Part shown: positions 5,054 through 56,191 of the stretch, piece by piece | How the letters are laid out: every line of letters starts with the position of its first letter | How positions within the stretch are numbered: the stretch's first letter is position 1 | Assembly (NCBI GenBank): GCA_007376385.1 | Contig: VMGC01000005.1 | Coordinates: 96,001 to 160,000, forward strand | Length of the DNA: 64,000 nt | From: Parcubacteria group bacterium Gr01-1014_8 | GTDB lineage: Bacteria; Patescibacteriota; Minisyncoccia; Phycocordibacterales; UBA2100 | Direction: 5' to 3' | The notes under the pieces: generated by a model | The model's input: only the letters and a program-made list of their open reading frames with translations | Databases searched by the model: none | Told to the model about the DNA's origin: nothing | Position numbers and translations under genes: made by a program

Positions 5054-6136
5054 CTACAGTAATCCGCTCAGCGCATCCTGATACGTCTGCACGCATTGCT
5101 TTTTCAGAGTTTCTTTGAATCTTGGTATCTGCGTCGCGAGTTCCGGGTAGTACACGAGCAGCTTGTCAGCAAATATTTCCAGTGAGTGCAGGGCACTCTC
5201 GTGGTCGAAGAGAAGTATTTCCGGTGGAATTGCGCCCGGTCCGAATTCTTGTGCGGTGTCGTGGTCCACAATACTGCAATCCAACGTGACGTTGTGGGTC
5301 GAGAGAGTCTTGTGCGCAATTCCCGCGCGATGCATTTTCCCGACACCCTGTCCCAGTTCTTCAGCGAACCATTGCGCGTACTCTCGGACATTTGTCACGG
5401 TCTCGTTCTCCATATTGATAAAATCGATCGCATCCTCGATATCTTCCCTGCCTTCAATGTCTTGCACGCGCGTCTTTATGCCATAGGCGCGTATTTCCAG
5501 GGCCGGCTCGAAGTTTTCAGGCAATATCCCATGCTTTCGGATTTGCGTATCGCCCCTTGGTATCTCGTCAACAGGCACAAGCTTCATACTTCCATCTTCC
5601 TGTCGTATTCCCACTTCTTTCAGCTGCAGGACGCCAAGACATCGGTGCGTACGTATGCCCAGCTCAGCAAACTTTTCTGCCATGTTGGCGTCGTACTCTG
5701 CCCACTTTTTATCAAGCAGGCCATCAACATCTTGAACGTCGCTTCCAGCCCGTGCTTCCCAGGGGAGTATGTCGCCGGTGCGGCGCGAAAGATGCACAAG
5801 TCCTTTGATATCGATGTCGCGATAGATGCGTCCCGTGCTGTCGGTGATGTATGCCTCGCCCACATCGCCGCTTCTCCTGTGACGTTCGCGTTTGCCGACG
5901 CGAAGACCAGGCAGCGTTTCGCCGTGCATTGTCTCTGCAAACTTTACGATGATTCCCAGCGGACTTCGCTCGCCCTTTTTGACGGGAAGGGGAGAATTCA
6001 TTTTGCTCGGGTCCGGTTCCCACGTACATTCATTGTCTGCCTGCACTGTCTGCATCTCAATTCGTCGGTCCCTCATGCCGGTGAGAATAAGCGCTCCGCC
6101 TGTGGTTTGTTGTTTATGTGGGTTCGGCTCTGTCAT
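5054..6136 (-). CDS. hypothetical protein with a degenerate protein-kinase-like (APH/Kdo-kinase-like) signature
   Basis: 360 aa. The segment HRAGIAHKTLSTHNVTLDCSIVDHDTA resembles the kinase catalytic loop H-x-D-x4-N followed by a DxD/DFG-like region, but the catalytic Asp position is Lys/Thr. Assignment is weak. Confidence 0.45.
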   Translation of the reverse strand: MTEPNPHKQQTTGGALILTGMRDRRIEMQTVQADNECTWEPDPSKMNSPLPVKKGERSPLGIIVKFAETMHGETLPGLRVGKRERHRRSGDVGEAYITDSTGRIYRDIDIKGLVHLSRRTGDILPWEARAGSDVQDVDGLLDKKWAEYDANMAEKFAELGIRTHRCLGVLQLKEVGIRQEDGSMKLVPVDEIPRGDTQIRKHGILPENFEPALEIRAYGIKTRVQDIEGREDIEDAIDFINMENETVTNVREYAQWFAEELGQGVGKMHRAGIAHKTLSTHNVTLDCSIVDHDTAQEFGPGAIPPEILLFDHESALHSLEIFADKLLVYYPELATQIPRFKETLKKQCVQTYQDALSGLL

Positions 6137-6379
6137 GTGCCTCTAGTATCGCGCTTTTTCATGAGGCATCCAAGGTGTATTCTGTGCAAATGGATCTCGC
6201 CGAAGTACTCCGAACAATACTCGCATTCCTACTTCAACTTGCAGAGTTGATCGTCACGTTCATTATCGCCGCCCTCCGTCTATTCCTCGATTTCTTCGGG
6301 ACGTTAGTCGGGTCGGTGTAGTGGAATTGACTTGCTAGCAGGTACGTCTTGCTCCGTTTTGAGACTGGGCGTAGTCTGA

Positions 6380-8960: not shown

Positions 8961-9049
8961 GCCGCTTTCTCGAGTTCTTCCCTTCAAAGGGGACCGGGCA
9001 AACACCGAAGCTGAAGGCTAACTCTGCCCGAATTTCCAAAAAGAAGGAT

Positions 9050-10861
9050 TTGTGGGATGATGCGCTGATGGATTTTGGTCGCAAGTCAATAGGGGACATG
9101 CTAAACGGGATGGCTCGGTACCGAGTCCCAAAATACCAGCGCTCCTTTACCTGGGGTACAAACCAAGTCTCAGATTTTTGGAGAGACCTTTGTGAAGCAG
9201 ATGAGAGAGAAGGATTCTTTCTCGGGACCATGATATTGCATAAGGATAGAGAGGGGGTAGAGGTGGAAAATCTCAAGAATATTGTTGATGGACAACAGAG
9301 AATGACCGCCGCAAGTTTATTATTGCTCGCATGCAGGAATCACTCGTCAAGAAGGAACCGAGACAGGGCTGCTGCACTTGATCAAACTCTGATGTTTCGT
9401 GATATCGCTACTGGAAGAGCGGAAACGCTCAGACTTGAGGTCGCTCCAGACATTCTAGATGCTTTTCGTCACATGGTGACTGCTAGGCAGTGGGATGAAC
9501 AAACTTTTCCAGACGAAGTAGATGGCCGAGTCGCCAGACGAATAAAGTCTATTTATAAGTATTTCAAGCAGCAGGTAGACGAACTATCAGATGCAGAGCT
9601 CTCGTCCTTACTTAATAAATTGTTGAATTCATACTTTCTTGTGATAGAAATTGAAGATATCACACAGGCTTTTGAGCTTTTTGAACGAACAAATGCGCGA
9701 GGAACTCCGCTGAATGCAGGAGAGTTGCTCAAGAACAGACTGTTTGCAGAGGCGCAGGAGAAAGAAATTGTAGAAGGCGAATGGGAGGAGATTGTTTCTA
9801 ACTCTAATGGGATGCTACTGCGAATGTTGAAGTATTTTGCAGCTCTTAAGCACGGGCAAGAAACGGGTCGGACGGTTTTGTATCGACATCTGCGTGGTCA
9901 AGTTGAATCGGACACACCGAGCCAGTTCATCCACGATTTGAGCGCTTTCTCTTCATATTTTGGAAAGTTCTTGGACAACAAACTTCAAGCCGCACCATTT
10001 ATTGATCGAAATTCTGATAAGTCATTCGAATTTCTCTTCATTGATGAGATTGCTTTTAAAAAGTTTGGTCGCAGCATGAGTGCGATATCTCTTTTTGGTG
10101 TCTACATTGTCCTTCCCGTTGTTTTCGCTGGCCTAAAAGGGCTATCGAAATTGAAAGACAAAAGCGGATTTAGACCCGCGTTGAAAGATTTTCTAAATCT
10201 TCTAGGTACGATGGAGTGTTTCCATTTTATCAATAATCAGATATGTACACGTCCCTCGAATCGTGCCGAGTCACTATATGCAAGTAAAACAAATGTGTTG
10301 GCGACAGCGGAGACATGCGCACAGTTCAGAGAGGTAATAAAGCAGATATCAAAAGGACTCAAGGAGATAAAGGTCGCTAATAAGGAAGAGTTCCTACTTA
10401 ATTTTACTGGACTTTCATATACGAGTCCTGCAAGCGATAAGCCTCTCTTTGCATACGTCTTTGATAGATTTGAATCCTCTCCATTCGCGTCAGCAGCACC
10501 TGTAACCATATTTGATCCGTCAGCTAATTACAGCCTGAACCGCGTATTCGAAGTTGAACACATTACCCCTCGAGCAATGTGGGGCAATTTATATCCGGAA
10601 GATGATTTGGTCAACAATATCGGTAATTTACTCATCCTAACGCAGGAGACTAATAGGCTTGTAGATACCAAACCATTGCCGGATAAGATTCGAATAATGA
10701 AGGAACGAGGCTACGACAATTTAAGTACCGTTCAACAATTTTCTAAAAAGTTCGAGGATAAGGAACTCAAGTGGTTACGTCCGACAGACATAACAGAGCG
10801 ATCTGTCGCAATGGCAGCTCAAGGCTACAGTGATATTTGGGATCCATGGCCGAATGATTGA
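9050..10861 (+). CDS. GmrSD-family type IV (modification-dependent) restriction endonuclease, DUF262 + DUF1524
   Basis: N-terminal DUF262/ParB-like NTPase motifs (KYQRSFTW ... VDGQQRMTA). C-terminal DUF1524 HNH-like motifs (EVEHITPRA ... GNLLILTQETN). The gene looks AT-rich relative to its flanks by eye. Confidence 0.8.
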   Translation: MWDDALMDFGRKSIGDMLNGMARYRVPKYQRSFTWGTNQVSDFWRDLCEADEREGFFLGTMILHKDREGVEVENLKNIVDGQQRMTAASLLLLACRNHSSRRNRDRAAALDQTLMFRDIATGRAETLRLEVAPDILDAFRHMVTARQWDEQTFPDEVDGRVARRIKSIYKYFKQQVDELSDAELSSLLNKLLNSYFLVIEIEDITQAFELFERTNARGTPLNAGELLKNRLFAEAQEKEIVEGEWEEIVSNSNGMLLRMLKYFAALKHGQETGRTVLYRHLRGQVESDTPSQFIHDLSAFSSYFGKFLDNKLQAAPFIDRNSDKSFEFLFIDEIAFKKFGRSMSAISLFGVYIVLPVVFAGLKGLSKLKDKSGFRPALKDFLNLLGTMECFHFINNQICTRPSNRAESLYASKTNVLATAETCAQFREVIKQISKGLKEIKVANKEEFLLNFTGLSYTSPASDKPLFAYVFDRFESSPFASAAPVTIFDPSANYSLNRVFEVEHITPRAMWGNLYPEDDLVNNIGNLLILTQETNRLVDTKPLPDKIRIMKERGYDNLSTVQQFSKKFEDKELKWLRPTDITERSVAMAAQGYSDIWDPWPND

Positions 10862-11321
10862 TGCAGCATTAATCAAACAGAAGACAAGGTACTTACGGGA
10901 CGGCCGGGCCCCGATTCCGAAAAGTGAAAAAATCTCTCGCACGATGAGTGCGATAAGAGCAAAGAACACGAAGCCCGAGTTACTTGTTCGCAAGGTTTTC
11001 CGAAAAGTAGGAATACGCGGATATCGATTGCATTGGAATAAAGTAGCCGGACGACCGGATATTGTGTTCCCTAAGAAAAAAGTCGCTGTGTTTGTTCACG
11101 GCTGTTACTGGCACGGATGTCCACATTGCAAACTTACACTCCCGAAAACGCATCGAGCATTTTGGCGTGCAAAGTTCAAGAGAAACAAGGAAAGAGACGC
11201 TCATAAGACAAAAGACCTGCGGAAATTAGGATGGCGTGTACTTACCGTGTGGGAGCACCAAATAAAGAAAGATGCGGATCAAATCGCTGCACGCGTCGTG
11301 AAGGCTCTTCGTGACGCTTGA
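10854..11321 (+). CDS. vsr: very-short-patch-repair endonuclease Vsr
   Basis: MSAIRAKNTKPELLVRK...GRPDIVFPKKKVAVFVHGCYWHGCPHC matches the Vsr hallmark (FVDGCFWHGH). The start overlaps the GmrSD stop by 8 nt in another frame. The 3-prime end overlaps the convergent MTase gene by 80 nt. Confidence 0.85.
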   Translation: MIDAALIKQKTRYLRDGRAPIPKSEKISRTMSAIRAKNTKPELLVRKVFRKVGIRGYRLHWNKVAGRPDIVFPKKKVAVFVHGCYWHGCPHCKLTLPKTHRAFWRAKFKRNKERDAHKTKDLRKLGWRVLTVWEHQIKKDADQIAARVVKALRDA

Positions 11322-12648
11322 TGCTCTGCAAAAGTGCACGGCCTATTTCTTCAATGATTCCGACGACAAGTGCGTTACCCATGAAGAACGCTCGTTTTAC
11401 GTCGGAAATGTCGTCATATGCGGTATGGCGAGCAGGGAATTGGCATAATAACTCTAACTCTGTTGGGGTAAGTCGGCGGTATTTTCCGGACTTTGTTTTT
11501 ACAACATGCTTGAATCGCGAGGGTGCGGGCCCTCCCTCTCCTGTAATTATCGTGCGGGAAGGTTTATCCAAAGCATCCGGAAAAGTCATTGGACCCTCTG
11601 CGTAGTGATAAGTGAATCCATCTGTCCCATGGCGCTCTTCCTTTTTAGCACCCTTGAGATATTTCCACTCTTTTAGTGAGCCGTTGATAAAATATTCTTC
11701 GGCGACTTTGTGTTCCGGAAGTAGAATATCACCGAGAGTAATGAAAGGGCCACCGTATTTTGGAGTTACGCGAGCGGTTGTGATCCGACCGTCACTCATG
11801 ACCCCAGCATTCGCAAAATCTATATCGTCCGGGAACAATTGTTCAAAGTCTCTCGTTATTCTGACGGGATCATCAGCGACATCGTGTCTCGCGAATCTTG
11901 AAATTTCATCTTCGACTGCGAGTCGTTGCGCGAAAACTCCTTCTTTTGTCAGCCAATTGATCGCGTCAGTCGAACGTAGCGCATTTGCAATACCGGTTCC
12001 ATTCTTGAACGCGAGAATAAAGATCCGGCGCCTGCGCTGTGGTTTTCCGTAATCAGCTGCATTGATAACGCGCCATTCGACGACATATCCGAGGTTTGCG
12101 AGCGAAGCGAGCATGATCGCAAAATCACGACCGCGGGCAGATGCTGGGGACTTTAATAATCGGTCAACGTTCTCTAGGAACACATAGGGAGCAGAGTCCT
12201 TGTGTCCTTTTTCTTGAAGAATGCGATAGATCTGCCACCAGAGAACGCCTTTCTTTCCCTGGAGTCCCGCAGCTTGGCTCAACGTTCGTGCAACCGAATA
12301 ATCCTGACAAGGAAATCCTCCGACAAGAACATGATGGTCCGGGATGTCACCTGTTGCGACGGTCGCGATATCTTGATTACTGTGTCCTTTGCTGCCAAAA
12401 CGTGCCCGGTACACCTCGGATGCGTGCTGGCGTTTCGTTGATGGCTCCCACTGATTACTCCAGATGGTCTCGAATTTCAGACCTGCTCTCGCCGCTTCCT
12501 TTTTTGATGCTTGGTCGAGTCCGAGACGAAATCCTCCCACCCCTGCGAACAATTCAATGACCTTAAGTGGCACCGCTTGTCGATCGTCTTTTTTGAGCGT
12601 ATGTTTGGCTAGTTTCCCCATAGCTAAATCGTACCAAGGAATATCCAT
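11242..12648 (-). CDS. dcm: DNA (cytosine-5)-methyltransferase (Dcm-like, type II m5C MTase)
   Basis: Motif I ELFAGVGGFRLGL, motif IV GGFPCQDYS, motif VI VFLENVDRLL, motif VIII QRRRRIFILAF. The partner of the adjacent vsr. Confidence 0.9.
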   Translation of the reverse strand: MDIPWYDLAMGKLAKHTLKKDDRQAVPLKVIELFAGVGGFRLGLDQASKKEAARAGLKFETIWSNQWEPSTKRQHASEVYRARFGSKGHSNQDIATVATGDIPDHHVLVGGFPCQDYSVARTLSQAAGLQGKKGVLWWQIYRILQEKGHKDSAPYVFLENVDRLLKSPASARGRDFAIMLASLANLGYVVEWRVINAADYGKPQRRRRIFILAFKNGTGIANALRSTDAINWLTKEGVFAQRLAVEDEISRFARHDVADDPVRITRDFEQLFPDDIDFANAGVMSDGRITTARVTPKYGGPFITLGDILLPEHKVAEEYFINGSLKEWKYLKGAKKEERHGTDGFTYHYAEGPMTFPDALDKPSRTIITGEGGPAPSRFKHVVKTKSGKYRRLTPTELELLCQFPARHTAYDDISDVKRAFFMGNALVVGIIEEIGRALLQSIKRHEEPSRRVQRFDPHLSLFGAPTR

Positions 12649-13452
12649 TTGATCAAGATCGAGTTATCCACTGTCTGCCATATGCATAAAAAGTTCATCG
12701 AACTACTGAATATACCCGATCCAAAGATCCTGGAACCCAAAAAAGTGGGACCTAAACGCCTACAGATGGTCAACTTTGCACGAACGCTTTCTAGAGGAAC
12801 CTTAGAAAGCCCGCATGAACACAAGATTTGGAAAGTCAGGGCTTATTGGATTGGATTCCAAAAACCAGGAATTGAGACTGCTGCGGACGCGGAAACCAAT
12901 TACAAAGATGGTACTGTCGCTCCTAATCCTGACGACATGAAGCCCACTATATGGAAGTCGAATAAGATCATTAAAGCACCAGCGTCATTTGAAGAGATTT
13001 TTCACGTTTTTGAAAGACTTTTACGAAATGATGAAGAAAATGTTTTGGAGCTGCTTGCCGCCATCCTTTATAGAGATGCTTATTTGTTGGATTACGAGAT
13101 CAGTGATCAGCCGAACGCTGTCCCCGAATATAGGTTATCCCAAGATATACTTCAGGAACTTGAGAAACCGCTCTTCAGTGTTACTGGATTACCAGCTGAG
13201 GTTTATTTGAAATATTTGCAAATGATCGCATGGAATGAGGACGTCAAATATAACGCCTTAGGTTATAATATTGCGAAAGAGAAGACGGGCAGGCAGGGAA
13301 ATCTATTAACCTACACCCACTTGATTGCTGTGCTGTTAGGTAGGGCGCGATTAGCAAATTTTTGCTACGCATTTGCTCGAAGTGGAGGAGTAGCACCTAT
13401 AACGGGAATTGCTACCTGGGCAGCATTTCCTTGGCTTAGAAATGAGAAGTAA
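12649..13452 (+). CDS. hypothetical protein divergent from the m5C MTase; candidate cognate restriction endonuclease (inference only)
   Basis: 267 aa with no recognisable motif. It is transcribed divergently, with start codons abutting the MTase start, and lies inside the AT-rich defence island. REase function is inferred from the classic R/M/V arrangement. Confidence 0.45.
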   Translation: MIKIELSTVCHMHKKFIELLNIPDPKILEPKKVGPKRLQMVNFARTLSRGTLESPHEHKIWKVRAYWIGFQKPGIETAADAETNYKDGTVAPNPDDMKPTIWKSNKIIKAPASFEEIFHVFERLLRNDEENVLELLAAILYRDAYLLDYEISDQPNAVPEYRLSQDILQELEKPLFSVTGLPAEVYLKYLQMIAWNEDVKYNALGYNIAKEKTGRQGNLLTYTHLIAVLLGRARLANFCYAFARSGGVAPITGIATWAAFPWLRNEK

Positions 13453-13499
13453 TAATTTCTACCTTGCGAACGGATCCGCATCATTGGTACACTTCTTGA

Positions 13500-13760
13500 A
13501 TGAAAAAACTTCCATCTTCGGCGCATCATTTGGTAATGCCGTTCGTACTCTCGCTCCTAATGACAGCGATAGTGTCCGGAATATCTAGTGTACACGTTGC
13601 AGGATTTGCCGGTGCGCGCGAGGTATGGTTCGGCGCGTGGCTGTGGTCGTGGGCAGTAGCGTTTCCGGCGCTTCTCCTTGTGATGCCGATCGTCCGGAGG
13701 ATAGTTGCCTATATCGTGGAAGCGCCAGGTCAGCAGGAGTCGGACAAGAAGATGCAATAG
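13500..13760 (+). CDS. small two-TM membrane protein (DUF2798-like)
   Basis: 86 aa with two hydrophobic helices separated by a short loop. Family assignment is from memory of the DUF2798 architecture. Confidence 0.45.
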   Translation: MKKLPSSAHHLVMPFVLSLLMTAIVSGISSVHVAGFAGAREVWFGAWLWSWAVAFPALLLVMPIVRRIVAYIVEAPGQQESDKKMQ

Positions 13761-43618: not shown

Positions 43619-44157
43619 ACGGGGCAATGCGGGCGAATACACAGTGGTACGTTGTCACCGGAGGTCCCAGCTCCGGCAAAACGACGACGGTAAATATATT
43701 GAAAGAGCGCGGATACAAGACGACCATTGAGCACGCGCGCCATTACATAGACACGAAGCGCGTCACAGGGAAGACCACGGATGAGATACGCGCGAATCAG
43801 GTAGCATTTCAACAAGGCGTTCTCGATATGCAAATACGAGAGGAGAAGGCCCTCTCAAGGGACGAGGTAGTTTTTCTTGACCGGGCAGTTCCCGATGCGC
43901 TCGCATATTACCGTTTTCAATCTCTGCCAGAAGATGAGAAGCTGCAAAACGCTCTCCGGAGTGCGTCGTATAAAAAGGTATTCATTCTGGATCCACTCCC
44001 GCTTGCTCCTGATTATGCCCGCACTGAAGATGAGACAGCGCAGAAACGATTACACGAGTTGCTCACCGAAGTATATGAGTCTCTCGGTTTTCCGGTTGTT
44101 CATGTTTCTGTTCTTCCACCGAAAGAGCGTGTGGATTTTATTTTGAAGAATCTATAG
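43615..44157 (+). CDS. P-loop NTPase (AAA_28/NadR-C-like small ATPase)
   Basis: Walker A VVTGGPSSGKTT and Walker B VVFLDR in a 180-aa protein. Confidence 0.65.
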   Translation: MNGAMRANTQWYVVTGGPSSGKTTTVNILKERGYKTTIEHARHYIDTKRVTGKTTDEIRANQVAFQQGVLDMQIREEKALSRDEVVFLDRAVPDALAYYRFQSLPEDEKLQNALRSASYKKVFILDPLPLAPDYARTEDETAQKRLHELLTEVYESLGFPVVHVSVLPPKERVDFILKNL

Positions 44158-44211
44158 CAAAAGTCCGTCCGCCAAATTGGCGAGCGGGCTTTGCAGTGAA
44201 GAGCTAAAATT

Positions 44212-44334
44212 CTATTTTTTCGATATCTGTTGCCACAACCAGATGCCAACGAGAACCAGGTCCACAAGCACTATGATCACAAAGAGAGAGCCAAAAATGC
44301 CTGCTCCGCCCATCATTCCGTATCCACCCATCAT
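44212..44334 (-). CDS. 40-aa Gly/Met-rich single-TM peptide (MMGGYGMMGGAGIFGSLFVIIVLVDLVLVGIWLWQQISKK)
   Basis: Translated by hand from the minus strand; it is below the ORF-track size cut-off. Similar MGG-repeat micro-proteins often precede metal-resistance genes, but that link is inference. Confidence 0.3.
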   Translation of the reverse strand: MMGGYGMMGGAGIFGSLFVIIVLVDLVLVGIWLWQQISKK

Positions 44335-44527
44335 ATGAGAAATAGTTTTACTGCTAGTAAGGCGACCTCCGGCTAGTATACCCCATGAGATGAATCATTC
44401 ATCGTAAATTGGAGACATAATTTTAGGGTAAAAAGTCCCATTTGATGTCTGAAACTGTACGTTTTTCTATCTCACGGGGTATACCCTGGTATCTTGCGTT
44501 CATTTTGTCTAGGTATAGAGTGGGGAT

Positions 44528-44905
44528 GTGGACATGCGAGCATATACACCTTTGTTTCTCGCTATCGTCGTTATGGCGGCGGTTTTCGGGATGCCATTAT
44601 TGCTCTCCGGCCCGATGCACCATGAAATGGGCTGTCCGTTTGATCAAGGAGAGGCAGCAATGTGCGCGATGAGCGTACTTGAACACATGAAGTATTGGCA
44701 GCTCGCGTTTGCAAGCATCGTTCTTGAATTGCTTGCAGTTGCTGCGCTGACGTTTATTGCATATGGAAAGTGGAAAGGCATTGCACCTCGAACGCCGGGC
44801 TTCGGGAGAATACTCGCACACAGTCATGTACCAGCGAGACCGACCTTGTTCCAGGAACTTTTTTCGCGAGGAATACTTAATCGTAAAGAATCCTACATTT
44901 TCTAG
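44528..44905 (+). CDS. hypothetical membrane protein with a Met/His/Cys-rich loop
   Basis: Two TM helices flanking GPMHHEMGCPFDQGEAAMCAMSVLEHM, a possible metal-binding loop. Confidence 0.45.
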   Translation: MDMRAYTPLFLAIVVMAAVFGMPLLLSGPMHHEMGCPFDQGEAAMCAMSVLEHMKYWQLAFASIVLELLAVAALTFIAYGKWKGIAPRTPGFGRILAHSHVPARPTLFQELFSRGILNRKESYIF

Positions 44906-45192
44906 TTTTTGCTTTAGCAGTTAACTAGAAAATGTATGGAACATACAAGCGCAATTTTTGTAACAGTACTTACGATCGGTCTCTTTGGGCTTATCATAGG
45001 TTTAGCTTCTGGCTACAACTTGGGTCTGCACAGGCTTGGCGCGCCGTCTATCGGCAACCACATCATGTCTAATGGTTACATCATGAAAGATGGTTCTATG
45101 GGCATGTAAAAGTGCGAGCCGCTTGCTTGGCATCCGCCAAGCAAGCGGCCTCCCGCACCTCTCAAACAATTAAACGGATAAATAGTACACTC

Positions 45193-51965: not shown

Positions 51966-52092
51966 ACAATCAAGTCTATCCTGTCATTTATCGTTTGTCA
52001 ATATATTGTTATCGTTTATATGCTGTTGCCAGGATCTTTAGCAGACGTATAGTTTCGAAGGTGGAAGTAGTCTTGTTTTTGAAAAAGTCGAA

Positions 52093-52704
52093 TTGGTAGC
52101 TCTGTTGCCCATAATTGACGCTCTTAAGTTAAATTTGATGCTTGAATTTCTTAGTAATTACTCCGGCGCTCTAACTGGAGTCGCTGCGCTGATAGGTGCC
52201 TGCGTTGCTATCTACGGTATCAGTGAGTGGAAGCGCCAATTTAAATGGCGGATTGAATATGAAACCGCTCGGCGATATATCAGGGCTCTTTATGACGTGC
52301 GTGAAGCGATAAATCGGGACGTCAGAAACCCAACTATTTCTCATGCAGAAATGAAAGCTGCCGAGGAGGCAGCACAGTTTAAAGGCCTAGATGTTACTAG
52401 AGCAGATACACAATGGATTATTTACAATCGCCGATGGGAAAAAGTCTCAGTTGCAAGAACGAATTTGAGGGAAGCGCTGCTCGAAACGGAGGTACTCTGG
52501 GGAAACGAAATAAAAAATGCGCAATCTGCTTTAGACGCACTGATTGGGATTTTATATGGAAAAATATGGGCAATTTTTCACAATGTTCCGACGCCGGATG
52601 CTGACATATATTTGTATCATACGGACGGCAAAGATAGTTTTACTGCAGAAATAGACAATGTTATTGAGGGCGTCGCAAAACCACTCCGCTCCCACTTACG
52701 CTAG
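52093..52704 (+). CDS. hypothetical single-TM protein; AT-rich, and flanked by gene remnants
   Basis: 203 aa with an N-terminal TM helix (GALTGVAALIGACVAIYGI) and a Glu/Arg-rich cytoplasmic domain. No family recognised. Confidence 0.45.
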   Translation: MVALLPIIDALKLNLMLEFLSNYSGALTGVAALIGACVAIYGISEWKRQFKWRIEYETARRYIRALYDVREAINRDVRNPTISHAEMKAAEEAAQFKGLDVTRADTQWIIYNRRWEKVSVARTNLREALLETEVLWGNEIKNAQSALDALIGILYGKIWAIFHNVPTPDADIYLYHTDGKDSFTAEIDNVIEGVAKPLRSHLR

Positions 52705-52740
52705 CTTCACGATTGTTTAAGACTTTTGAAAATGCTAGGT

Positions 52741-52870
52741 TCTTGCGGTGATGTTGACCATCCATTCGATACCAAATTTTTCGGTGAGCATGCCGAACGT
52801 GTCACCCCGCGGTAGTTGAGGATGGGAGCCTGACTTCACCAATCCCGTCACCGACGCACAATCGGCTCAA
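52741..52870 (-). pseudogene. 3-prime remnant of a VOC/PhnB-like gene (paralog of 55595..56023)
   Basis: Minus-strand translation gives ...GDTFGMLTEKFGIEWMVNITAR*, aligning with the C-terminus ...GSYFGMFRDKYGIEWMVEFPAAK* of the intact gene. Upstream similarity decays quickly. Confidence 0.5.
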
Positions 52871-52933
52871 GCGCTAAAAGTACCTTTTCAAAAAGGCAAA
52901 TCGGTATCCAAAATATAGATTTGTAATTTAGAC

Positions 52934-53719
52934 TTATTTTCGAGTCGCATACAGAACCGCTACTGTACCGAATACTAAAAATGGCCATAACAGCCACGTT
53001 GCAAGAGGAATCCCAAGAAAAAGCGAATCTAAGATTGTGCTAGTCTGCCATGTATAGGCCCACTGCTTTGCCGCGATGTTTGGAAGTTCTTGGATAAGCA
53101 TGAAAACGTATGTCGCAGAGAGCGCCGCCACAAGTGTCGCGCGCCAATTCTGTAAAAAGTCTCGGACAAACGAACTGTGGGAACGTCGTTCTGAGATGAT
53201 AGAAAGCATTGCGCAGACAACAAGCAGAAACGAATATGAACCGAGCACAATAGAAAATCTTGAATGAAGGTTAGCAAAGAAATACAGCGTAAGAATTGTT
53301 GAGGCGATGCAAATGACTTTTGCGATGCGTACAGGATTTTGGCGCACTTCGGTCGCAGGAGTTTCCTTTGCGCCGAAAACTTTTCTCCCATACAAATATG
53401 ACAGCACTATTATGAATCCGCCTGCAGGGTATGCCCATGCAAACAAAAGAATATATTCAACAAGCGAATCGTAATTATAGTGCCATGCGTGCGCGAGACG
53501 CAGACCACTAAATTCAACCGCGAGCCCGCCCATAAGAAATACAACGTACAGAAGAATAATTTTCCCACGCGAGCGCAATTCTGCGGAGATCGTTGGAATG
53601 AGTAAAAGGAGAAGCCCCAACAGAAGAAATTCAAAGAAATGATTGTAATGAAAGGAATACGCAAGGCTGAGAGAGAGGAGTGTAATGAACCCCCCTGCCG
53701 CGACAAGAACCTTGGTCAT
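52934..53719 (-). CDS. hypothetical polytopic membrane protein (~8 TM)
   Basis: Start trimmed to MTKVLVAAGGFITLLSL. The ORF-track N-terminal extension runs through the second VOC remnant. Confidence 0.5.
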   Translation of the reverse strand: MTKVLVAAGGFITLLSLSLAYSFHYNHFFEFLLLGLLLLLIPTISAELRSRGKIILLYVVFLMGGLAVEFSGLRLAHAWHYNYDSLVEYILLFAWAYPAGGFIIVLSYLYGRKVFGAKETPATEVRQNPVRIAKVICIASTILTLYFFANLHSRFSIVLGSYSFLLVVCAMLSIISERRSHSSFVRDFLQNWRATLVAALSATYVFMLIQELPNIAAKQWAYTWQTSTILDSLFLGIPLATWLLWPFLVFGTVAVLYATRK

Positions 53720-53789
53720 GAAGAAAAGTATATCACCCCTACCGCCACACGAACGGCTGGCGTTTTCCTGCGCGACGAGCTCTAAATTA

Positions 53790-53860
53790 CGACTTTTTTG
53801 CGGTGATGTTGACCATCCGTTTCGTTCCGAATTTGTCGGTGAGCATGCCGAACGTGTCAC
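53790..53860 (-). pseudogene. second 3-prime remnant of a VOC/PhnB-like gene
   Basis: Minus-strand translation gives GDTFGMLTDKFGTKRMVNITAK, about 80% nucleotide identity to the 52741 remnant. Confidence 0.45.
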
Positions 53861-53932
53861 CCGCCGCGACTTATCCAAAGGGACGACAGGTGCGATGCCT
53901 GACGAGAGCTTGTGCTATAGTGTGGCCATCAT

Positions 53933-54148
53933 ATGTTGACAACGATATACAAGAAAGTTCGCTCCGGGTACGTTGCATGGGTTGAGGAAATCCCGGGTGT
54001 TAATACACAGGGGGCCACTAAAGCGGAGGCCAAGGCTAATCTTGCAGATGCGCTACGGGAGTTTGTGGCCGCTCGCCGAATGCTCACGAAGCGGGAATCT
54101 GCTCGTGGCGAGTCGCTTGTGCGCGAAAGCATCCCTGCCTTCCGCTAA
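53933..54148 (+). CDS. hicB: HicB-family antitoxin (UPF0150)
   Basis: 71 aa. YVAWVEEIPGVNTQGATKAEAKANLADALREF matches the HicB N-terminal RNase-H-like fold signature. The stop overlaps the hicA start (TAATG). Confidence 0.65.
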   Translation: MLTTIYKKVRSGYVAWVEEIPGVNTQGATKAEAKANLADALREFVAARRMLTKRESARGESLVRESIPAFR

Positions 54149-54342
54149 TGAAGCGAACAGAACTTGAACGGTATTTGCGTGCGCATTCGTGTTACCTGCT
54201 CCGAGAGGGCAGCAAACATTCGGTATTTCACAATACGAAGAATGGCTAGACCTCAACAGTTCCAAGGCATACTGAAATCTTTCCAACACTTGCGCGGAAA
54301 ATCTGCAACGACCTTGGAATTCCACCCATCAGGAAGAAATAG
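54148..54342 (+). pseudogene. hicA: HicA-family toxin gene interrupted by an in-frame TAG (amber) codon
   Basis: MKRTELERYLRAHSCYLLREGSKHSVFHNTKNG-*(TAG, 54247..54249)-TSTVPRHTEIFPTLARKICNDLGIPPIRKK*. Both halves are HicA-like (dsRBD-like fold, conserved GSH and K..L...I). Confidence 0.6.
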
Positions 54343-54355
54343 AAAAGTGTTCTTT

Positions 54356-54601
54356 TTACCGATGAATACAGCCGGCCCAGCAGCAGGGGCGGCGCATGCC
54401 GCTTTTCATCTTTGAAAGCGCCTTCTCGATACGGATATTTCTCGTTTCCGCTTTCTTACCGGAGATTACCCAGCAAATCCATTCATTGCGCGCGAGCGGC
54501 GTAATATCCTCCCACAATGCCCGTACCTTAGGCGTCTGGCTTATGGCATTTCGTAAATCCTCAGGTAGTTTATGTACCGTACCGTTGGCGAGCTTGGTCA
54601 T
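54356..54601 (-). CDS. YdeI/OmpD-associated (DUF1905-like) family protein
   Basis: 81 aa. ...LPEDLRNAISQTPKVRALWEDITPLARNEWICWV... resembles the YdeI C-terminal bacteriocin-protection domain as I recall it. Confidence 0.5.
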   Translation of the reverse strand: MTKLANGTVHKLPEDLRNAISQTPKVRALWEDITPLARNEWICWVISGKKAETRNIRIEKALSKMKSGMRRPCCWAGCIHR

Positions 54602-54646
54602 GGGATCATTCTATCAAATCTCTTACGCTGGGCTCGCAAAGTATAG

Positions 54647-54976
54647 TTATCTTTTGTCGTGCATGGTCACGGCTCTTGGCAAATGTGGTTTTATTTTTTC
54701 GTATTCTCTGTGGCGAGAAATAAGGTCGAAGAACGATTTGCCTGCGTTAGCCAAAATTACGTCATTGTTATAGGGCAACCCGGAGCCCGACAATTGATGC
54801 GTAATTCTTCCCCATACGCCCTGTACCCAGAGTTTTATTTCTTCGGGATTATTGAAATGCTTGACCGCGAGATTGCTATTCTCAATGTAATACTTATCGA
54901 TCCAGTCTATCACGACACTCTCGATCACGTCTCGTGTCGTTGCGTTGAGCTGACGAAATCCTTTGTCTTCTTTCAT
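54647..54976 (-). CDS. hypothetical protein
   Basis: 109-aa ORF, AT-rich. No family recognised. Confidence 0.4.
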   Translation of the reverse strand: MKEDKGFRQLNATTRDVIESVVIDWIDKYYIENSNLAVKHFNNPEEIKLWVQGVWGRITHQLSGSGLPYNNDVILANAGKSFFDLISRHREYEKIKPHLPRAVTMHDKR

Positions 54977-55063
54977 ATAGAAATAGGAAAAAGGCGAGGA
55001 AAAAGAAAAAGATGTCCGACACTTTTTTCTCTTTTTCCAACGACCGCATTCATAGTGTTTTAT

Positions 55064-55444
55064 TTATGTGCCCGAATCGATCATATTTTGAGTTCTGTTC
55101 TTATACCAACCGACTGCGAGGGGGAGAATGAGCGTCAAAGCGTAGTAGAGATATACATCTAACTTGTAGTATCCATCTGCCGGCTTGAATATCATCACGA
55201 GAAATATGTAGTCGAGAACTATCGCAATAAGTGTCCATGCGACCGCGAGGAGAGCATAGTGTTCAAATGATGCGCTTATTTTCTTGAACAGCACCCAAAG
55301 CGTGATCAGTACACCGATCGGCGTAAGGATCCACCCGATCATGGAGGGCGATACTACAAAGAAGAGTACGATGCCAAGCACATAGCCGATGAACCAAAGC
55401 GCAAAACCCCACAAAATCGCATTTTTGTAGAACGCCTTATTCAC
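55064..55444 (-). CDS. four-TM membrane protein, paralog of 47955..48332
   Basis: MNKAFYKNAILWGFALWFIGYVLGIVLF...FKPADGYYKLDVYLYYALTLILPLAVGWYKNR. Confidence 0.55.
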   Translation of the reverse strand: MNKAFYKNAILWGFALWFIGYVLGIVLFFVVSPSMIGWILTPIGVLITLWVLFKKISASFEHYALLAVAWTLIAIVLDYIFLVMIFKPADGYYKLDVYLYYALTLILPLAVGWYKNRTQNMIDSGT

Positions 55445-55594
55445 GCTCTGATTGTATCAGAAGTTCGAACGTCAACTGCCATCCAAAAAAGAATGGTTTT
55501 GTTAAGAGACAAAATCACGTGCTCCTCTGTGTCTCCAATCTTCGAACCTTCTTTACTGCCAATAGAGTGTTTGTACCTCTATAAGCCTATTAAG

Positions 55595-56023
55595 TTATTT
55601 AGCGGCTGGAAACTCAACCATCCACTCGATACCATATTTGTCTCGAAACATGCCGAAATAGGAACCCCAAGGGCTATTAGCCATAGGCATCTCTACAGTG
55701 CCACCTGCCGAAAGCCCGTTGAATATTAGTTCTGCTTCTTCCTTACTCTCTGTACTGACCAAAATTTTACTTCGATTTTCGTTTTCATTCACTTTACCCA
55801 TAAACGCAGGTACGTCATTGGCCATCAACACGTTACTTTTACCGATGGGTAAAGTGATGAGCATAATTTTCTCTGCCTCGGTGTCTGACACTGGAAATTC
55901 TGGACTCGCTAGATCTTTGAAACGAGTAATCTTTGTAAAATCACCCCCAAATATTGATTTATAAAATGTAAACGCTTCTTCAGCATTGCCGTTGAAGTTA
56001 ATCCAAGGATTTATCGTTGTCAC
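55595..56023 (-). CDS. VOC-family PhnB-like protein
   Basis: INPWINFNGNAEEAFTFYKSIFGG...ITLPIGKS...GTVEMPMANSPWGSYFGMFRDKYGIEWMV is the canonical PhnB/3-demethylubiquinone-methyltransferase-like VOC fold. Confidence 0.75.
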   Translation of the reverse strand: MTTINPWINFNGNAEEAFTFYKSIFGGDFTKITRFKDLASPEFPVSDTEAEKIMLITLPIGKSNVLMANDVPAFMGKVNENENRSKILVSTESKEEAELIFNGLSAGGTVEMPMANSPWGSYFGMFRDKYGIEWMVEFPAAK

Positions 56024-56046: not shown

Positions 56047-56118
56047 GAACTAATTTGCTCCCCGGGTAGGACTCGAACCTACAACCAACTCCTTAACAGG
56101 GAGCTGCGCTACCATTGC
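56047..56118 (-). tRNA. tRNA-Asn (anticodon GTT)
   Basis: Folded by hand. Acceptor TCCCCGG/CCGGGGA, D-arm GCGC-AATGGTA-GCGC, anticodon arm GCTCC-CTGTTAA-GGAGT (anticodon GTT), T-arm GTAGG-TTCGAGT-CCTAC, discriminator G. CCA is not encoded. Confidence 0.85.
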
Positions 56119-56191
56119 GCTACCGGGGAATGTCCGGCCCAGTATAGACGAATGTGTTAGAATTTCCAGCATAGTCAGTAACCGCATTTTT

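Follow-up and report, generated by a model that had tools for sequence, protein, structure and literature searches.

A methyltransferase-linked family of hypothetical proteins as candidate type II restriction enzymes, seen from a defence island of a Parcubacteria genome

Few catalytic folds are known for restriction enzymes, and the latest of them, PabI, brought new chemistry as well. The PabI family came to light only through its linkage to DNA methyltransferases (MTases) and its mobility, had no match to a known nuclease fold at discovery, and is scattered patchily across domains (PMC10273834). Looking for a unique open reading frame (ORF) beside a cytosine-5 methyltransferase (C5-MTase) and vsr is likewise a logic that has found real restriction endonucleases (REases) before; at MCA1616-1618 of M. 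capsulatus (Zheng, Roberts et al.), a C5-MTase and Vsr accompany a homolog-less ORF that was proven to be an REase (PMC2615612). Two further systems bear comparison: the Sau3AI restriction-modification (R-M) system, in which R.Sau3AI is paired with the 5-methylcytosine (m5C) methylase M.Sau3AI and the site is GATC, and a BREX island on plasmid pEFER that contains BrxU, a GmrSD-family enzyme that complements BREX (PMC8565348). Here we describe a 64,000-nucleotide stretch of contig VMGC01000005.1 (positions 96,001 to 160,000 of the forward strand) from Parcubacteria group bacterium Gr01-1014_8, hereafter the window, in which a GmrSD-like gene, vsr and a C5-MTase gene lie beside a divergently transcribed ORF, ORF4. 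As at MCA1616-1618, the C5-MTase and Vsr are joined by an ORF with no homolog in the domain and structure databases searched, and ORF4 shares with PabI its discovery through MTase linkage and mobility, its lack of a match to known nuclease folds and its patchy distribution. The M. capsulatus ORF is a different one, in a different gene order, and is a singleton, whereas ORF4 belongs to a large family.

12682..13452, + strand: ORF4, 256 amino acids (aa), a candidate type II restriction enzyme whose family and fold are undescribed

The mechanically called ORF runs from 12649 to 13452 (+) and gives 267 aa from a TTG codon. The true start of ORF4 is almost certainly the ATG at 12682, giving 256 aa, because the NCBI protein and the N-termini of homologs agree on it; the NCBI entry, a 256-aa 'hypothetical protein' of Parcubacteria bacterium Gr01-1014_8, is 100% identical to ORF4. 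Searches of Pfam, NCBIfam, PADLOC, PHROGs and PDB sequences gave no match, and neither did tblastn against PLSDB plasmids and INPHARED phages. An exhaustive profile search recovered a family of 467 clusters with a patchy spread over Patescibacteria, Bacteroidota, DPANN, Asgard and methanogen archaea, Melainabacteria, Margulisbacteria and others. We found no earlier description of such a family in the literature, with REBASE outside the comparison. A 257-aa protein that is the divergent partner of an MTase on Exiguobacterium plasmids was considered as a relative and rejected on comparison.

We compared 57 distinct ORF4 loci, the window's and 56 others; five are cut off by contig ends, which leaves 52 informative. 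A DNA MTase gene lies within 1.5 kb of ORF4 in 51 of these 52, and the median gap between the two ORFs is 15 bp. Among the 57 loci, the partner belongs to the window's C5-MTase family in 35, is another C5-MTase in 6 and an N6-adenine/N4-cytosine (N6/N4) MTase (PF01555) in 10, and one locus has none. This is the arrangement by which a type II REase is recognised operationally, a gene beside its cognate MTase across independent genomes, and it recurs with three MTase classes; the first-pass annotation, made from the sequence alone, had placed the unknown ORF in the position of the cognate REase, and the wider comparison bears this out. Such varied partner chemistry (C5 versus N6/N4) fits a toxic nuclease that needs its site protected by any means, rather than a cofactor of one methylase. 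Vsr accompanies the ORF4/MTase pair at 17 loci, mostly in Patescibacteria, and the conserved mobile unit consists of the MTase and ORF4, with Vsr as an optional member. A C-protein-like HTH_3 gene is found upstream of R at six loci (L004, L010, L019, L022, L040 and L062); in L010 it (E 3.5e-15) is directly upstream of the ORF4 homolog and overlaps it, and in L040 a gene for another protein, p210, stands between the two. An HTH_3 gene upstream of R is the classic controller-protein layout, and it points towards ORF4 as an REase.

Family members often have other genes of defence or mobility close by. At L009:863-3425 the MTase/ORF4 pair is preceded by genes for a MORC-like HATPase protein, a 135-aa product and a ThsB-like TIR protein, a further case of the unit in a stacked defence setting. 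At the sole ORF4 locus that has both flanks and no methylase (L043:358-6657), genes for a MORC-like HATPase_c_3 protein and a DUF5677 protein come before ORF4. The element that holds ORF4 there encodes a large serine recombinase and is apparently inserted in the Mg-chelatase/ComM gene (comM), and a 198-aa C-terminal fragment follows.

Of five lines that speak for ORF4 as a putative restriction enzyme, the most telling is the fusion of some family members to a Sau3AI-type effector. About ten family members of 458-476 aa carry some 210 extra C-terminal residues that match the C-terminal domain of Sau3AI, at E 1.6e-8 with a single sequence and at E 5e-21 with a ten-sequence profile against 4PXG. 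The profile scores 69 bits on Sau3AI residues 251-433 and just 2.8 bits on the N-terminal domain, and it also finds MutH (E 1e-7). The position that we take to be the catalytic Glu77 of MutH is occupied by Asn, Val, Thr or Met in the extensions, which fits a non-catalytic role. Sau3AI itself has its nuclease in the N-terminal domain, and its C-terminal one is a non-catalytic, GATC-binding effector (bioRxiv 10.64898/2026.04.21.719898), so that in the chimeras the ORF4 domain occupies the place of the nuclease. One of the chimeras lies beside Vsr and the window's MTase family. ORF4 showed no sign of belonging to the MutH/Sau3AI family in its own right, as it has no Pfam match and the ORF4 half of the fusion profile matches nothing in the PDB. 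Two further proposals were rejected: ORF4 as a divergent MutH-like domain, by analogy with the internal duplication of Sau3AI (hhalign probability 0.3%), and the ~460-aa members as fusions of ORF4 with p210, against which hhalign spoke; their extension resembles the Sau3AI C-terminal domain instead. Two other members, P0124 (377 aa) and P0127 (341 aa), have N-terminal extensions of 80-150 residues and carry motif variants, NHND for NPNDM and NEDAK or NEDSK for NEDVK.

Within ORF4 itself, the near-invariant positions among 134 members are K61-P-G-K64-E65, N82, D85, R131, D137-H138, N185-E-D-V-K-Y190 and G203-R204. The set is rich in carboxylates and basic residues, and we infer from it a candidate active site of E65, D85, D137, E186, D187 and K189. 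An AlphaFold2 model built with 15 homologs (mean pLDDT 91.7, pTM 0.90) comprises helices at the N-terminus, a small beta-sheet (strands 45-52, 55-61, 87-92 and 95-97) and an all-helical bundle at the C-terminus. Foldseek found no match to the model in the PDB (best E 2.4) or among viral models (best E 0.47). ORF4 does not qualify for the PD-(D/E)XK superfamily, which is marked by an alpha-beta-beta-beta-alpha-beta core with Asp opening beta2 and (D/E)xK on beta3 and by structural similarity to its members, and no structural similarity to the HNH, GIY-YIG, PLD or half-pipe REase folds was seen. A clear non-nuclease fold had been named at the outset as a result that would count against an REase; a fold is indeed confidently predicted, but it matches neither a nuclease nor any other fold in the PDB or the viral models. 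There is no structural or sequence similarity between ORF4 and PabI, which is a curved beta-sheet (half-pipe), whereas ORF4 is modelled as a small beta-sheet with a helical bundle; PabI is a glycosylase that recognises GTAC. Whether ORF4 represents a new catalytic fold is a question on which we stand about evenly balanced.

Taken together with the composition of the locus (below), these results make it probable that the block is a stacked, horizontally acquired defence island of two independent modules, with ORF4 as the cognate restriction enzyme; taken by itself, the assignment of ORF4 to R-M is quite probable. The first module would be a single-gene GmrSD-family enzyme, presumed from its family to cut DNA with phage-type base modifications. 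The second would be a conserved mobile type II R-M unit with a repair accessory: the C5-MTase would methylate host sites, most likely at the cytosine of GATC, Vsr would nick the T:G mismatches that arise by deamination of those 5-methylcytosines, and the divergent 256-aa ORF4 would attack unmethylated copies of the MTase's site. The analysis directly shows what the genes are, their foreign composition, the near-obligate MTase linkage of the family, a fold without a match and the natural fusions to the Sau3AI effector; nuclease activity, GATC specificity, the roles of the individual residues and the activity of the window's own copy, which departs from the family at residue 64, are in each case what we infer. 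We give an even chance to the broader proposal that ORF4 founds an unrecognised superfamily of GATC-specific REases with a fold and active site unlike those of PD-(D/E)XK, HNH, GIY-YIG, PLD and half-pipe enzymes, spread through bacteria and archaea by horizontal transfer and naturally recombined with the allosteric effector domain of Sau3AI.

With hundreds of clusters, a confident fold without a match and a near-obligate linkage to methylases, the family is a concrete candidate for another REase fold, and its predicted target, GATC, is testable. The natural chimeras with the Sau3AI effector would in that case mean that allosteric regulatory modules and catalytic modules are swappable between unrelated nuclease folds, which is of interest for enzyme engineering. 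Members are annotated as 'hypothetical protein' in many genomes of the Candidate Phyla Radiation (CPR), DPANN, Bacteroidota and other groups, and because Pfam, NCBIfam, PADLOC and PHROGs do not detect the family, R-M systems are under-counted in those lineages.

The evidence for a GATC target comes from the MTase as well as from the fusions. The target-recognition domain (TRD) of the window's MTase (residues 215-389) can be aligned over its whole length with those of Haladaptatus and Priestia plasmid MTases, at 34-39% identity, M.Sau3AI being outside the comparison. On both plasmids a MutH/Sau3AI-family endonuclease lies near a member of the window's MTase family, divergent and adjacent in Haladaptatus and about 2 kb off in Priestia megaterium. 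TRD identity is 39-46% to other ORF4-partnered MTases and 23-24%, over far fewer aligned positions, to other C5-MTases. From these alignments, the probable specificity of the MTase is GAT(m5C). The Haladaptatus locus (L014:4037-7206) has two tandem C5-MTase genes adjoining the MutH/Sau3AI-family endonuclease. The resemblance to the Sau3AI system is threefold, in that the window's MTase is also a C5-MTase of a family that adjoins MutH/Sau3AI-family endonucleases, the GATC-binding effector of Sau3AI is homologous to a domain in some ORF4-family proteins, and GATC is depleted in ORF4-carrying genomes.

That depletion was measured as the observed/expected ratio (O/E) of GATC in the ORF4 loci, which is 0.44 in 34 loci with the window's C5-MTase family, 0.53 in five with another C5-MTase and 0.17 in ten with an N6/N4 MTase, the last group not being taxon-matched. 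Among the 16 four-base palindromes, it is usually GATC that these loci avoid most strongly. The controls are 75 loci of related metagenomic organisms, chosen by a P-type ATPase as housekeeping gene; their O/E is 0.73, and 25% of them have GATC in first rank. The differences are significant both for depletion (Mann-Whitney p = 1.4e-5) and for GATC as the most avoided palindrome (Fisher p = 1.5e-4). Within the controls (L071-L150), GATC and GGCC are both depleted at baseline (O/E 0.73 each), which suggests that the lineage commonly carries R-M systems specific for GATC and GGCC. As a guide to specificity, the N6/N4 MTase of the distant branch was compared with its PDB relatives, and this gave generic beta-class matches only, which are uninformative. 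Sau3AI is blocked by m5C and by N4-methylcytosine in its site (PMC2615612), so a GATC enzyme with a C5 or an N4-type methylase would have precedent. From the effector fusions, the family partners of the MTase and the GATC depletion, we think it somewhat probable that ORF4 and its MTase target GATC or a site that contains it.

Several observations weigh against an active, GATC-specific REase in the window, and with them the alternatives have to be judged. As to specificity, TRD identity of 34-39% does not prove that the site is the same, and among taxon-matched Patescibacteria the GATC O/E is 0.57, a marginal difference (p = 0.04). The window's own O/E of 0.68 is the lineage baseline (0.73); we had considered it as evidence of specificity and rejected it, because related control loci stand at the same level, and only the family-wide comparison carries weight. 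As to function, we found no biochemically characterised member of the family in the literature, where REBASE was outside the comparison and a characterised relative is possible.

The window's copy has Ile at position 64 (codon ATT, 12871-12873), where 97% of the 134 members have Lys. This change in the KPGKE motif is private to it, with Lys in 14 other aligned relatives, including the five closest (P0002-P0006), and the copy may be attenuated. The family could then be one of restriction enzymes of which the window holds an attenuated or dead member, leaving a functional MTase and Vsr with a relic R gene. The baseline GATC depletion of the window would agree with this, and R-M systems commonly lose R in evolution while keeping M. 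The gene is nevertheless full length, its other near-invariant residues are intact save for two lineage-wide substitutions, and the composition of the island suggests recent acquisition, so that we consider a dead copy unlikely.

We judge it rather more doubtful that ORF4 binds DNA as a partner protein without catalytic activity, for example as a site-specific regulator, a reader of methylation or a specificity subunit, which would make the MTase and Vsr in effect an orphan unit for methylation and repair. This would account for the lack of a nuclease fold and for the all-helical bundle in the C-terminal half of the model. The (D/E)-x-K triplet at 187-189 (E-D-V-K), which weighs against the main reading, lies in a predicted helix and not in a beta-strand and is no canonical PD-(D/E)XK site, the reason that we do not file ORF4 under PD-(D/E)XK. 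One member, P0040 (393 aa), ends in a Peptidase_S24 domain (a LexA-like autoprotease; E 5e-22), a fusion typical of cleavable DNA-binding repressors and hard to reconcile with a simple nuclease. Catalysis might come from elsewhere at some loci, since p210, a protein of ~203-216 aa that adjoins ORF4 homologs on either side in L004-L008, L040 and L052, carries a textbook PD-(D/E)XK signature (ExE ... GSD ... VDEKA, with V-D-E-K about 15 residues after G-S-D).

L004:6807-7418; L007:1760-2398; L008:703-1341; L052:5757-6392; L040:4312-4959: p210 copies

No match to p210 was found in Pfam, PADLOC, PHROGs or PDB sequences, and in the systems that have it p210 could be the actual nuclease or a further subunit. 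It is missing from the window and from most ORF4 loci; beyond an MTase and ORF4, most loci have at the most Vsr or a C-protein and no further candidate nuclease. Linkage across three unrelated MTase types suits a toxin and its antidote better than a regulator of one promoter, and C-protein control is characteristic of toxic REase genes. In the Sau3AI-like fusions, moreover, ORF4 replaces the catalytic domain and not the DNA-binding effector, and its near-invariant cluster of acidic residues and Lys is typical of metal-dependent hydrolases. A chemistry other than phosphodiester hydrolysis, with ORF4 a base-excision restriction enzyme (glycosylase/AP-lyase), has its precedent in PabI, which is MTase-linked, novel in fold and non-hydrolytic (PMC10273834); the lack of a phosphodiesterase fold and conserved Asp, Glu, Lys, Asn and Tyr residues that are also compatible with glycosylase chemistry agree with it, and we regard it as very unlikely.

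The genes around ORF4, together with the composition of the block, form the setting in which the R-M reading of ORF4 places it. All four ORFs of the first-pass annotation were found where it had put them. The remainder of the island (GmrSD, Vsr, C5-MTase and low GC content) is ordinary, and the fourth gene is its valuable part.

9000..13480, no strand: low-GC island, also low in GC at third codon positions (GC3), enclosing all four genes
9050..10861, + strand: GmrSD-family (DUF262 + DUF1524) putative type IV modification-dependent endonuclease, 603 aa
10854..11321, + strand: vsr, very-short-patch T:G mismatch endonuclease (TIGR00632)
11242..11321, no strand: convergent 3' overlap of vsr and the MTase gene, 80 bp
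11242..12648, - strand: C5 cytosine DNA methyltransferase (PF00145, TIGR00675), 468 aa
12649..12681, no strand: divergent intergenic region between the MTase gene and ORF4, 33 bp between starts, with no C-protein gene

The island has a GC content of 0.454 against 0.507 +/- 0.020 in other 4.4-kb windows, only 0.4% of which are equally low, and GC3 is 0.41-0.46 in its four genes against 0.58-0.66 in nine flanking genes. Its edges are sharp, the 500-bp GC profile falling at about 9000 and rising again at about 13450-13500. The block had been called AT-richer than its neighbours by eye, with GC and codon-usage windows proposed as a check, and the deviation is stronger than the eye could judge. Because GC and GC3 both deviate and the transitions are sharp, horizontal acquisition, as had been suggested, is well supported. 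Direct or inverted repeats, a tRNA and an integrase were sought around the island and nothing convincing as a boundary or route of arrival was found, nor were convincing sigma-70 promoters or terminators found at the island. In the 33 bp between the M and R starts there is no sigma-70-like match, and the window shows no C-protein-controlled arrangement.

The product of vsr scores 120.2 bits against TIGR00632 (cutoff 97.85), as expected from its earlier naming as a Vsr endonuclease, and its motifs RPDI and FVHGCYWHGC (FVHGCxWHGC) are conserved in the alignment, the catalytic motifs being intact by inspection. The mechanical ORF begins at GTG 10830 and the likely start is ATG 10854. The MTase matches PF00145 (E 3.3e-56), TIGR00675 (213 bits, cutoff 100.65) and the PADLOC model MTase_II PDLC03329 (E 3e-158), and the C5-MTase motifs FAGVGG (I), GFPCQDYS (IV), ENV (VI), QRRRR (VIII) and GNAL (X) are all present and intact; ATG 12621 is an alternative start. 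Its earlier description as a Dcm-class m5C enzyme stands as far as the C5-MTase class goes and for Dcm in the broad sense only; the enzyme scores only 66.4 bits against NF007772 (PRK10458; cutoff 710) and so is no orthologue of E. coli Dcm (CCWGG). The convergent overlap of vsr and the MTase gene recurs in L001 (113 bp) and in other Patescibacteria loci. On Exiguobacterium plasmids (L012:1910-3792 and L067:2537-3313), the window's MTase family and Vsr are divergent to another hypothetical protein of ~257 aa, followed in L012 by an HNH protein that matches PADLOC 'methyl-directed REase' models; because these plasmids pair it differently, the MTase family has at least three unrelated types of partner.

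The upstream gene encodes a DUF262/DUF1524 protein, as first described, with both GmrSD domains above their Pfam thresholds: GmrSD_N (PF03235) at E 4.5e-34 (118.8 bits, cutoff 33.2) and GmrSD_C (PF07510) at E 1.3e-08 (35.2 bits, cutoff 23). The top PADLOC model is HEC-06 (3.6e-52), a single-gene candidate, and phrog_21165 also matches (E 3.6e-37). In the translation, the DGQQR motif and the C-terminal His-Me motif EVEH...N..GNL...N are visible and intact; ATG 9068 is an alternative start. The stop codon of this gene (10859-10861) and the vsr ATG at 10854 make an 8-bp overlap, and because no later vsr start is available, this implies that the two genes are co-transcribed and translationally coupled in this genome. 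No GmrSD homolog was found near ORF4 at any of the 56 other loci, so the GmrSD-like gene is an independent neighbour and not part of the R-M unit; L001 has Vsr, MTase and ORF4 arranged as in the window with an RNase H-like gene upstream in the place of GmrSD. The first-pass annotation had treated the four genes as one unit, which this comparison contradicts, and had offered a stacked immunity locus as an option, which agrees with a GmrSD module stacked on a separate M/V/R unit. That all four genes form one integrated system, with the GmrSD-like enzyme functionally dependent on MTase, Vsr and ORF4, we hold to be extremely improbable: the stop/start overlap and the low GC3 common to the four genes would favour it, but it is opposed by the absence of GmrSD from the 56 other loci, by the L001 layout and by GmrSD-family enzymes working as single-gene systems (PADLOC HEC-06; BrxU, PMC8565348).

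The juxtaposition of a type IV enzyme with a methylating R-M unit had been called unusual. The immigration control region of E. coli K-12 groups hsd, mcrBC and mrr. On pEFER, as here, a GmrSD-family enzyme stands beside a system that methylates host DNA, where the two give complementary coverage of modified and unmodified invaders (PMC8565348), so that the combination has precedent. The partner on pEFER is BREX with an N6-adenine methylase, whereas here it is a type II m5C R-M unit, and the m5C-methylating neighbour poses a question of compatibility that the BREX case does not. The question is a reasonable one because BrxU degrades fully 5-methylcytosine-substituted DNA in vitro (PMC12409352). 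Sparse site-specific methylation is a very different substrate from such DNA, and the translational coupling of the GmrSD module to the methylating module argues that the two coexist harmlessly.

Elsewhere in the window, a 360-aa ORF on the minus strand, without a Pfam match, and a 354-aa ORF on the plus strand overlap almost entirely at 5054-6250. Further patches of low GC (0.42-0.45) at 44001-45000 and 52001-56000 might be other acquired segments, and a tRNA-Asn lies at 56057-56129.

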